The position numbers were made by a program, and so were the translations under genes. The notes below the pieces were generated by a model. The model made no database searches. It saw nothing but the letters and a program-made list of their open reading frames with translations, and was not told the DNA's origin. This document shows positions 56,452 through 58,135 of a stretch of DNA of 64,000 nucleotides, piece after piece. The first letter of the stretch is position 1. Each line of letters starts with the position of its first letter. This DNA is from Fibrobacterota bacterium (GTDB lineage: Bacteria; Fibrobacterota; Fibrobacteria; UBA11236). Where the stretch lies: positions 64,412 to 128,411 of the forward strand of contig CANIEU010000005.1 of assembly GCA_947466585.1 (NCBI GenBank), given 5' to 3'.

Positions 56452-56480
56452 TTATGGAAGCAGAAACCGGTGCAGCCCGA

Positions 56481-56594
56481 ATGAGGAATGCAGAATGATG
56501 AATGAAAACATGAGGAGGAGCGGGGCTTCAGTGTCCGCGCCGAACAAGTTTTCTGTGTTTACGCTTTCATCATTCATCATTCATCATTCATCAT
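56481..56594. repeat. heptamer-array inverted element (ATGAGGA-ATGCAGA-ATGATGA-ATGAAAA-cATGAGGA ... (TCATCAT)x4)
   Basis: Left array at 56481-56516, right array at 56567-56594, 50-nt spacer. It begins 30 nt after the XPB stop. The left array supplies the candidate ATG start codons of the M16 peptidase gene. Confidence 0.85.
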
Positions 56595-58135
56595 TTGCTG
56601 CCTTTCGTACTGCTTTTGCCCTTTGCACCCTTCTTGTGAGTTTCGCACAAGCGGATATCCAAGCCGTCCACCGCGTGCTCCCCAATGGTCTCACGGTCAT
56701 TCTGTATCCGTCCAAGCAGGCGCCCACTGTCGCTTGCCGCCTGTTCTACGTGACCGGATCGGTGCATGAGCACCCGGGCAATACCGGTATTGCCCACCTG
56801 CTCGAACACATGCTCTTCAAGGGCACGCGCAAAACCGGAACGCGCGACTCTGTGGCCGACGGCAAGATCGAAACGCGCATTGAAGCGGTGATGGACAGCC
56901 TCGACCGCTTAACCGCGGTTCCGCAGCCGGATTCGGCGCGCATCCGTGAATTCCGTTCGACGTACGACTCCCTCGTCACCGCCCAGCGCGCGCTGATGGT
57001 GCCGTACGAATTGTGGGACGCCTACGAAAAGGCCGGAGGCACGGGCTTGAACGCCTTTACCTCCGACTTGATGACGGCCTATATCGTCACGCTGCCCCGC
57101 AACCGCGTGGAGCTGTTCCTGTGGCTCGAAGCCGATCGTATGCAGAATGCGGTGCTCCGCGAGTTCTATCCCGAACGCGACGTAGTGACCGAGGAACGCC
57201 GCATGCGCGTCGAAGACCGCCCCACGGGCCGCTACTGGGAAAGCCTCATGGGCGTGTTTTACGAAGCGCATCCGTACCGTTTGCCCACCATCGGCTATCC
57301 TTCCGACATCCGTCACCTGACGCGTCGTCAGGCCATGGAACATTACCGCAACTATTACAAACCGAACAATGCCATCCTCGTGCTGGCCGGCGATCTCGAC
57401 ACCACCTCGGCCCTGCGCGGCATCGAACGCTATTTCAGCGGCATTCCGCGCGGTGCGGACTTCCCGCCCGTGGTCACGGCCGAGCCCGTACAAGCGGGGG
57501 AGAAGCGCCTCACCGTGCGCCGCAGCGACGCGGCCCCGCGCCTCGACGTGCTTTTTCATACGCCGGGATACCCGGATCCGGATCTGGCCGCGCTCGACGT
57601 TCTGGAGGGCGTGCTCTCGGGTAAGAGTGGTCGATTGCACAAACGCCTCGTCGTCGAATCGAAGCTGGCGGTCTCCGCTTCGGCGGGCAACGGCGTCGAC
57701 AAATACACATCTTCGTTCGAGGTGGCAGTGGGGCTCGACGGCACACCCGATCTCGTCAAGGTCGAAGCGGCCGTGTGGGATGTACTCGAAGCATTGGGCC
57801 GCGACACCATTTCGACGCGTGAATTGCAGCGCGCCCGCAACCAGGTGGCAGCACGCAGCGTGCGCTCGGTGGAAGACCTTGAAGAGCTCGCCACCGAATT
57901 GGCGTATTGGGAAATGCGTAGCGGTACCGGCGGCTGGCAAGACATCAACCGGTTTCCCGCGGCCCTGCAGGCTGTGACCGCGGAGCAGGTGCGCGCAGTG
58001 GCGGCTAAATACTTCCGGCGCGACGCGGCAACCGTGGGCGTGATCTTGCCGCCCGTGATGGGGAAGCTCGCAGATTCGAAATCCGTGACGCCGGAAAAAT
58101 CGAAAACCGTCAAGAAGGTCGGGGGTGGCAAATGA
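56510..58135 (+). CDS. M16 family zinc peptidase (active subunit, HxxEH)
   Basis: Inverted zinc-binding motif HLLEHMLFKGT. The start is ambiguous (ATGs at 56495, 56498 and 56510 lie inside the repeat element). The signal-peptide-like N-terminus is partly encoded by the (TCATCAT)4 array. 4-nt overlap with the next M16 gene. Confidence 0.75.
   Translation: MRRSGASVSAPNKFSVFTLSSFIIHHSSFAAFRTAFALCTLLVSFAQADIQAVHRVLPNGLTVILYPSKQAPTVACRLFYVTGSVHEHPGNTGIAHLLEHMLFKGTRKTGTRDSVADGKIETRIEAVMDSLDRLTAVPQPDSARIREFRSTYDSLVTAQRALMVPYELWDAYEKAGGTGLNAFTSDLMTAYIVTLPRNRVELFLWLEADRMQNAVLREFYPERDVVTEERRMRVEDRPTGRYWESLMGVFYEAHPYRLPTIGYPSDIRHLTRRQAMEHYRNYYKPNNAILVLAGDLDTTSALRGIERYFSGIPRGADFPPVVTAEPVQAGEKRLTVRRSDAAPRLDVLFHTPGYPDPDLAALDVLEGVLSGKSGRLHKRLVVESKLAVSASAGNGVDKYTSSFEVAVGLDGTPDLVKVEAAVWDVLEALGRDTISTRELQRARNQVAARSVRSVEDLEELATELAYWEMRSGTGGWQDINRFPAALQAVTAEQVRAVAAKYFRRDAATVGVILPPVMGKLADSKSVTPEKSKTVKKVGGGK

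Follow-up and report, generated by a model that had tools for sequence, protein, structure and literature searches.

Paired inverted heptamer arrays, kept in place while their units change, at the start of an M16 peptidase gene in Fibrobacterota

Simple sequence repeats (SSRs) with a seven-nucleotide unit are over-represented in many bacterial genomes, an observation that has been made since 2007 and, as summarised in Rehm et al. (2015, PMC4692102), has seen little follow-up; the over-representation is still without an accepted explanation. The closest described system to the one treated here is the GGGAATC repeat of Xanthomonas. Like the GGGGAYT repeat of Nostoc, it forms arrays of about four units that lie mostly between co-directional open reading frames (ORFs), near their stops and starts; a Xanthomonas genome contains 70-75 convergent array pairs, with the G/purine-rich strand inward, that are capable of forming stem-loops, and the pair type is preserved between related species, with differing lengths (PMC4692102). 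The Xanthomonas repeats use one G-tract heptamer genome-wide, interpreted as forming G-quadruplexes, and show under-representation within coding sequence (PMC4692102). In Haemophilus influenzae, a hairpin in the 5' untranslated region (5'-UTR) of hmw1A is built on a heptamer SSR, (ATCTTTC)n, is processed by RNase III and controls expression (Rapun-Araiz et al. 2025, PMC12721329). Another heptamer, TAACTGA, forms direct repeats ahead of the start codons of genes in Beggiatoaceae, Cyanobacteria and Bacteroidetes, and strains differ there by indels in steps of 7 nt; a part in regulating translation has been suggested for it, with proteins of the oligonucleotide/oligosaccharide-binding (OB) fold (Csp/S1) as candidate readers, and CspB binds heptamer repeats with one protein per unit (MacGregor 2015, PMC4679880). 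Here we describe a pair of inverted heptamer arrays between an XPB/ERCC3-like helicase gene and an M16 peptidase gene in a 64,000-nt stretch (the window) of contig CANIEU010000005.1 of a Fibrobacterota bacterium (assembly GCA_947466585.1). We hypothesize, with about even confidence, that this element belongs to a class defined by its structure, has long resided at the XPB/M16 junction, and has been absorbed into the start and signal peptide of the M16 gene, where it likely throttles initiation.

A sequence-only reading of the window had noticed a repeat sitting between the helicase stop and the peptidase start, and the paired inverted arrays that it saw are indeed present. The parts of the junction are as follows.

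54661..56451, + strand: XPB/ERCC3-like helicase gene (ORF list; Pfam ERCC3_RAD25_C 5.7e-47, Helicase_C_3, ResIII)
56472..56476, + strand: outer stem extension GCAGC, with GCUGC 56597-56601 as predicted partner (minimum free energy, MFE, structure)
56479..56516, + strand: left (5', purine-rich) degenerate array, GAATGAG GAATGCA GAATGAT GAATGAA AACATGAGGAGG (Tandem Repeats Finder, TRF; repeat search; start-codon scan); it contains the in-frame ATGs 56495, 56498 and 56510, a Shine-Dalgarno (SD)-like GAGGA at 56483-87 and AGGAGG at 56513-18
56517..56565, + strand: loop (~50 nt), open in the M16 frame, with GTG 56531 and GTG 56555 (start scan, unpaired probabilities)
56566..56595, + strand: right (3', pyrimidine-rich) array, a perfect (TTCATCA)4.3, read as SSFIIHHSSF in the M16 frame (TRF, ORF translation)
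56597..56601, + strand: outer stem extension GCUGC, predicted partner of 56472-56476 (MFE structure)

The first ATGAGGA of the left array is at 56481, which is 30 nt past the XPB stop codon (TAA 56449-56451), the distance that the sequence-only reading had given. TRF delimits the left array at 56479-56506 (period 7, 4.0 copies, 76% matches) and the right array at 56566-56595 (period 7, 4.3 copies, 100% matches), and the arms 56480-56505 and 56570-56595 are inverted copies, 26 nt long, 88% complementary and 64 nt apart. A search for (TCATCAT)2 with at most 2 mismatches gave five matches, all within the element, against 0.27 expected, and none of 100 shuffles reached five. The + strand RNA of 56470-56605 is predicted to fold at -50.4 kcal/mol (z -3.97; 0 of 200 shuffles as stable) into a single long hairpin with 29 inter-arm pairs, whose stem reaches past the arrays via GCAGC/GCUGC.

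Ortholog loci, designated here by L numbers, were fetched one by one via contigs encoding M16 homologs. Nine further species or populations contributed ten loci; each of these has the adjacency XPB-M16-M16, at an M16 identity of 71-86%, and the order acpP-rnc-lplA-x-XPB-M16-M16-fabF is kept in the four longer loci (L081, L083, L084, L168). Paired arrays stand at the matching place in 11 of 11 junctions, the window counted, and are made of at least seven different units:

ATGATGA / TGATGAG: the window, L081, L083 and the right arm of L168
GGAAATC / GAAATCT: L084 and L166
GTCGGAA: L165
GGTACCA: L167
GGTACTC: L172
GCGAAAA: L173
GGTTGGT: L174

A long hairpin is predicted in seven of the first eight junctions (25-32 inter-arm pairs, z -4.1 to -8.6), and L172 and L174 also fold in this way, bringing the total to 9 of 11. 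The position and the shape of the junction element are thus conserved, and its sequence is not. At shorter range no variation was seen: over 4.6 kb the window matches contigs from three independent assemblies, GCA_947475575.1 among them, with one base changed at most, and the element, unit number included, is the same in the three assemblies read, out of seven contigs carrying the same protein. A side feature nearby, conserved in relatives, is a small - strand ORF (76-82 aa, acidic, no Pfam match) between lplA and XPB, at 54089-54319 in the window, 3681-3929 in L081, 3727-3933 in L084 and 121-369 in L166.

The downstream half of the element lies within a protein-coding gene, whose own features are these.

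56495..58135, + strand: M16 (pitrilysin-family) peptidase gene, true start within 56495-56531; its stop overlaps the next ATG (ATGA) (Pfam, homologs, ORF list)
56606..56653, + strand: conserved part of the signal peptide, namely Arg 56606-08, hydrophobic core TAFALCTLLVSF 56609-44 and AQA 56645-53 (translation, ortholog comparison)
58132..59652, + strand: second M16-family subunit gene, whose start overlaps the first's stop by 4 nt (ORF list, Pfam Peptidase_M16_C)

The first M16 protein matches PF00675 (Peptidase_M16, 1.1e-16) and PF05193 (Peptidase_M16_C, 1.1e-28) and has the zinc motif HxxEH as HLLEH in its translation; judging from the 4-nt overlap, translation of the second subunit probably depends on that of the first. 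The candidate starts in the M16 frame are the following.

ATG 56414, within XPB: the matching upstream frame is closed by stops in L081, L084, L166 and L168
ATG 56495/56498, left arm: SD-like GAGGA 7 nt upstream of 56495
ATG 56510, fifth, degenerate unit of the left array: without SD
GTG 56531, loop: AGGAGGAG 10-12 nt upstream, the strongest Shine-Dalgarno match; start of the public annotation
GTG 56555, loop: without SD

The sequence-only reading held that the left array supplies every candidate start codon. The plausible ATGs (56495, 56498, 56510) are repeat-derived, as it said, but ATG 56414, GTG 56531 and GTG 56555 are in frame as well. The public protein P0001 (534 aa, from GTG 56531) is 100% identical to the query translated from 56495 and 12 aa shorter, and translation would start either at one of the left-array ATGs (56495, 56498, 56510) or at the loop GTG 56531.

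Whichever of these is used, the right arm is read through. We scanned the M16 frame codon by codon in the window and seven other junctions, and read L172 and L173 directly. In all of these, the stretch that begins with the right arm and ends before the conserved Arg, the hydrophobic core and the [AS]-x-[AS] plus [DE]-I contains no usable in-frame ATG, GTG or TTG; later candidates lie only inside the hydrophobic core (GTG 56636 in the window, TTG 968 in L165). The right arm is therefore translated. In L174, where only the called ORF was read, both arms are within it. The sole in-frame starts past the XPB stop in L083 and L084 are those of the left array. L165, L167 and L174 have their ATG further upstream, ahead of both arms, where it overlaps the XPB stop; the XPB genes of L081 and L083 end on a TGA that belongs to the left array. 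Of the eight scanned loci, six are free of M16-frame stops throughout the element, and in the other two (L081, L166) the stops are upstream of the first ATG, while the other two frames usually have stops there. The right array is accordingly read in the M16 frame as SSFIIHHSSF, as the sequence-only reading had translated it, and its counterparts in relatives encode, among others, SSFITHHSS, FSDFRFLISDF, AWYRVLGTWY and PTSDVRRPTS. With an open frame and no start between the right arm and the hydrophobic core, its suggestion that the repeat has been exapted as coding sequence is supported.

The translated repeat precedes what by inspection is a Sec (signal peptidase I) pattern: ...AAFR, then TAFALCTLLVSF, then AQA and DIQ, with R, core, [AS]-x-[AS] and [DE]-I also present in the orthologs. 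By the -3/-1 rule the mature M16 protein is predicted to start at DIQ, 56654. Depending on the start codon the presequence has 41, 48 or 53 residues, which exceeds the usual Sec length of ~18-30; its mean is 44 aa in the 25 closest homologs vs ~25 aa in homologs further away, whose signals are of the ordinary MK...A-x-A form. Because the n-region of a signal peptide is cleaved off, repeat-encoded residues need not be conserved. Two other signal types were rejected by inspection: a twin-arginine (Tat) signal, as the RR in MRRSGAS stands ~25 residues ahead of the hydrophobic core and without an RRxFLK context, and a lipoprotein signal, as FALC is unfit for a lipobox (Leu at -1) and its Cys is not conserved in P0008.

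The element is not a single local one, as the sequence-only reading had taken it to be, and is one member of a genome-wide class. We paired TRF arrays that share a period, lie less than 200 nt apart and have a unit that is a rotation of the partner's reverse complement. By this rule the ten arrays in the 64-kb window make five inverted pairs, against 0.53 period-7 arrays and no pairs in 30 dinucleotide shuffles:

Pair 33322/33412 (33322-33444): unit GGTAGAC, upstream of a gcvT-like gene
Pair 51033/51089 (51033-51103): unit CGTACT (period 6), fabD to fabG
Pair 51872/51958 (51872-51990): unit ACAGCGG, fabG to acpP
Pair 56479/56566: unit GAATGAT, XPB to M16
Pair 60952/61083 (60952-61114): unit GAAATGA, after fabF

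The syntenic relative locus L081 has five pairs in 13 kb. As controls we used loci from genome and metagenome contig scans matching a generic M16 motif, with no close relatives among the matches listed; these loci from unrelated phyla (Acidobacteriota, Verrucomicrobiota and others) contain 5 pairs in 678 kb and ~6 in 395 kb, or ~0.007-0.015 pairs per kb over 1.07 Mb. The class is thus not confined to this lineage, and is roughly ten times denser here.

Arm length clusters near four units (most arms in relatives have 3.7-5 copies), and the five pairs of the window share no unit or loop with one another, nor is either shared across orthologs. Among 28 pairs from the window, L081-L084, L165-L168 and the unrelated-phyla loci L019, L023, L034, L045, L074, L102, L105, L128 and L148, 25 have their purine-rich arm on the 5' side; this lineage accounts for 17 of its 18 pairs and the other phyla for 8 of their 10. 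A purine-then-pyrimidine pair keeps that order when it is reverse-complemented, so this polarity is independent of strand and not an effect of transcription direction. Irregular units are mirrored in register in the partner arm, at 32/32 positions in the 60952 element, 22/22 in the 33322 element and 27/28 in the L084 junction. In L165, L167 and L174, by contrast, one mismatch recurs in every unit, array-wide, and because some pairs have such a mismatch per unit, a variant can sweep one array by itself.

Several observations on the class stand beside these results. Inverted pairs of 7- or 8-nt arrays, 24-182 nt apart, occur in L023, L034 and L045 (Acidobacteriota), L074 (Verrucomicrobiota), L019 (a delta proteobacterium) and the metagenome contigs L102, L105, L128 and L148; because pairs also occur in such unrelated phyla, the element class is phylogenetically broad. 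The convergent orientation of the Xanthomonas GGGAATC arrays appears to be of the same polarity as the rule for a purine-rich 5' arm. The unit family GTAGTGG/CCACTAC is present at at least four intergenic sites of L081 (2528-2690, 9285-9328, 11639-11768, 12528-12600), whereas the units of the window are locus-specific, so unit sharing between loci varies by genome. A second gene with the same layout, 60997..62004 (335 aa, no Pfam match), lies downstream of fabF: the final unit of (GAAATGA)7 supplies its ATG, the reading frame runs on through the loop, and the right array, (TTTCTCA)4.6, is translated as FFSFLISQFSF, with a hydrophobic stretch after it. In the orthologous element of L081 (10623-10751) it is the right array (TTTCTGA) that codes for the signal peptide's hydrophobic core, and L168 has at 7329-7422 an element of unit GGTTGGT with a normal start downstream of it. 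An origin from a miniature inverted-repeat transposable element or an insertion sequence was rejected, as no sequence is common to the copies. The word GCTTCA was tried as a shared loop motif and dropped as well: it is in three of four window loops, with a rough chance probability of ~0.07, and is missing from the L081 loop.

Three further repeats of the window are of related kinds. At 30760-30859, (CTATCCA)5 and (TTCCTAC)2.4 lie between convergent genes with a degenerate purine-rich partner (GGGGTGGGTAAGAGTGATTAGGGGATAG) upstream, and look like a decayed member of the paired-array class. The block at 24955-25100, between two - strand genes, consists of (GGCTCGCAAT)6.7 followed by ~six degenerate 10-mers, with a single inverted unit (CACAAGCCATTG) just upstream; its period is 10 and it is without a full partner array. 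At 39566-39602 a period-9 array (CCCAGAAAT, ~4 copies, 75% matches) abuts ATG 39603, with a long ORF from near 39554 in another frame.

The anatomy and the evolutionary behaviour of the junction element are solid, and the history and effect that we propose for it are as follows. The segment 56472-56601 would be one copy of a class that is structure-defined, not sequence-defined, and common in this Fibrobacterota lineage, each copy consisting of two inverted arrays of about four 7-nt units, purine-rich 5' and pyrimidine-rich 3', that may form a hairpin of ~25-32 bp. The element would have been at the XPB/M16 junction since before the subclade diverged, with its unit sequence replaced repeatedly; in this turnover a variant unit may sweep one array by slippage, and the other arm may follow by selection or by intrastrand template switching. 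The M16 gene would then have absorbed the element, with loop and right array translated as a long, unconstrained n-region of a cleaved Sec signal peptide, in which arbitrary repeat-encoded residues would be tolerated because they are later removed. As the initiation region falls within the stem or borders the loop, initiation of M16 and of the overlapping second subunit is most likely throttled by the hairpin; most initiation would then occur on nascent RNA that does not yet include the right arm, or with the stem melted. Our best reading of the class as a whole is that its function is RNA processing or stability, translation gating, or none, the throttling of M16 being a side effect of the site of this copy.

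In this genome the hairpin is predicted to mask the initiation region: in a 250-nt context the unpaired probability is 0.00 for ATG 56495/56498, 0.31 for ATG 56510 and 0.61 for GTG 56531, and 0.01 to 0.31 for the SD windows. Translational control by occlusion of the start, which the sequence-only reading had raised, is on this model plausible, and it is not conserved.

Several results weigh against our hypothesis or parts of it. The first ATG of the orthologs is upstream of the hairpin in L165, L167 and L174, in the left arm in L081, L083, L084, L166 and L173, and in the loop in L172, and arm complementarity has been lost in L168 and L173 with the gene still intact. Because these ATG positions vary and two orthologs do without the hairpin, start occlusion is neither conserved nor essential, and it cannot be the feature that conserves the element. 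The - strand folds nearly equally well (-45.9 kcal/mol, z -4.43), and the arm positions of 18 pairs (446 Watson-Crick, 12 G-U on the + strand, 5 G-U on the - strand, 32 other) carry no clear signature of RNA-level selection. At the nucleotide level the loops are dissimilar: alignments of the window loop with seven ortholog loops are no better than shuffles except for L166 (nominal p = 0.037), and a loop peptide shared by the window and L083 (GASVS...SVF, mostly third-codon-position differences) is a marginal post hoc match (p = 0.038). This match hints at a start upstream of 56522.

The rival that survives best, a possible but doubtful one, is that the element is a functionless mutational by-product of slippage within the arrays and quasipalindrome template switching between the arms, persisting because the n-region tolerates almost any residues. 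Units that differ at every locus and across orthologs, unconserved loops and unconserved encoded peptides are all consistent with it, as are the predominance of non-wobble arm mismatches, the equal folding of both strands and the two intact genes with decayed hairpins; the exact mirroring of irregular units in the partner arm is what templated copying is expected to give. Yet a 7-nt array in coding sequence is a standing frameshift hazard, and the layout is nonetheless kept in 11 of 11 junctions at 71-86% protein identity, and also at the gene downstream of fabF. An arm length near four units and one polarity in 25 of 28 pairs are, moreover, not obviously predicted by undirected slippage.

We regard it as unlikely that the element is an intercistronic RNA processing or stability element, in which a stem of ~30 bp serves as an RNase III substrate or as a barrier to 3' exonucleases and sets the XPB vs the M16 message. 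Both here and in L081, most gaps between the genes of the fabD-fabG-acpP-rnc-lplA-XPB-M16-M16-fabF cluster contain such elements, their stems reach at least 22 bp, and the hmw hairpin of H. influenzae is a precedent for RNase III processing of a heptamer-SSR hairpin in a 5'-UTR (PMC12721329). The rnc gene itself (52338..53129) is in the same cluster, which is not evidence of cleavage. Cleavage of the stem would sever the start codon from the body of M16 and so turn the gene off. Wobble pairs, as said, leave no signature; a consensus scan of 56200-56800 found no promoter-like and no terminator-like site, the right arm being followed by TTGCTGCC and no T-run as an intrinsic terminator would have; and Rfam gave no match at gathering thresholds in the whole window. 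Archaeal C/D-box small RNA families, the only ones that matched at E <= 1 (at 56435-56598), scored 13-20 bits vs cut-offs of 38-54 and were taken as chance matches, because the UGAUGA word of the unit AUGAUGA mimics the C box.

Another improbable reading has the class recognised by shape alone (7-nt period, arms of about four units, purine then pyrimidine) and kept through sequence replacement because a dedicated reader acts on it. OB-fold cold-shock or S1-type proteins would be the candidates, one monomer per pyrimidine-rich heptamer, opening the hairpin and gating the initiation of exported proteins, and the M16 and fabF-downstream genes would be cases of recruitment as start codon and signal-peptide front. 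The one-per-heptamer binding of CspB is a possible reason for the 7-nt period.

We give very little credence to a phase-variation switch, in which the translated right array, by gaining or losing one 7-nt unit, would shift the M16 frame off or on, with the second subunit coupled to it, as in the CTCTT repeat of Neisseria opa. A perfect 4.3-copy array in coding sequence with a unit length that is not a multiple of 3 would suit such a switch, and the left array has ATGs in all three frames. The out-of-frame ATGs, however, reach a TGA within a few codons and the other frames hold two to three stops, which leaves no rescue frame; the arrays are short, at ~4 units; over the element no difference is seen among the three independent assemblies (these three points speak weakly); and the genes are housekeeping-like, with the same elements in non-coding gaps too. 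Finally, that the annotated N-terminus is artefactual, with the real M16 start downstream of the right array and the repeat a 5'-UTR, as the sequence-only reading had offered as its other option, is scarcely credible: gene callers do not agree about where the orthologs start, and the N-terminal extension is longer than usual, but the first in-frame start past the right arm (GTG 56636, in the hydrophobic core) would delete the signal peptide, the eight orthologous junctions scanned agree, with the frame open through loop and right arm in all, and close orthologs carry repeat-encoded residues from different heptamers, with no conserved N-terminus lacking such residues among them.

Under the hypothesis of a structure-defined element absorbed by the M16 gene, the 5' end of a protein-coding gene is built on a fast-evolving nucleic-acid structure, with the front of a signal peptide drawn from a repeat hairpin, and the cleaved n-region is a place that can absorb arbitrary non-coding sequence. 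In several orthologs the sole available start codon is repeat-derived. The placing of these starts by gene callers is inconsistent, so the N-termini of this clade should be treated with caution. Locus-specific units, unit turnover at orthologous sites and the polarity rule together make the choice between a selected structure and a mutational by-product testable.

Compared with known systems, the element resembles the Xanthomonas and Nostoc pairs in having 4.0 and 4.3 units, inverted arms and a purine-rich strand 5'. Unlike in Xanthomonas, the units here are locus-specific (GAATGAT, GGTAGAC, ACAGCGG, GAAATGA, CGTACT), are mostly without G-tracts, as is the one at the XPB/M16 junction, and are replaced between orthologous sites, and in place of an avoidance of coding sequence the right arm and loop are within the M16 ORF. 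Like hmw1A, the locus has a heptamer SSR as an arm of a long hairpin (here predicted) at the 5' end of a message for an exported protein; in hmw1A the SSR, of at least 10 units, makes up the left arm alone and faces a G-rich non-repeat on the right, all of it is 5'-UTR and the copy number is phase-variable (PMC12721329), whereas here both arms are arrays of ~4 units, the start codon and part of the coding sequence are in the hairpin, and no copy-number variation was seen in three assemblies. The TAACTGA repeats share with the element a position right at translation starts, but use a single fixed unit, are almost always direct rather than inverted, and are not reported as coding. The opa genes of Neisseria reportedly carry a coding repeat, (CTCTT)n, in the signal-peptide region, as Stern et al. 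are said to have described in 1986. The two have in common a pyrimidine-rich SSR, of a unit length that 3 does not divide, translated within a cleaved signal peptide; the opa arrays differ in being long hypervariable pentamer arrays with no inverted partner array and an established ON/OFF frameshift function. REP, BIME and REPIN elements have a genome-wide consensus, are spread by RAYT transposases and have proposed roles in mRNA stability. They too are intergenic hairpin-forming elements between co-transcribed genes, but in the class described here no sequence is shared, the arms are tandem repeats and the loops are unrelated. We would not file the element in any of these families; it is best described as one of a paired-heptamer kind with locus-specific units, turnover at conserved sites and partial absorption into signal-peptide coding sequence.

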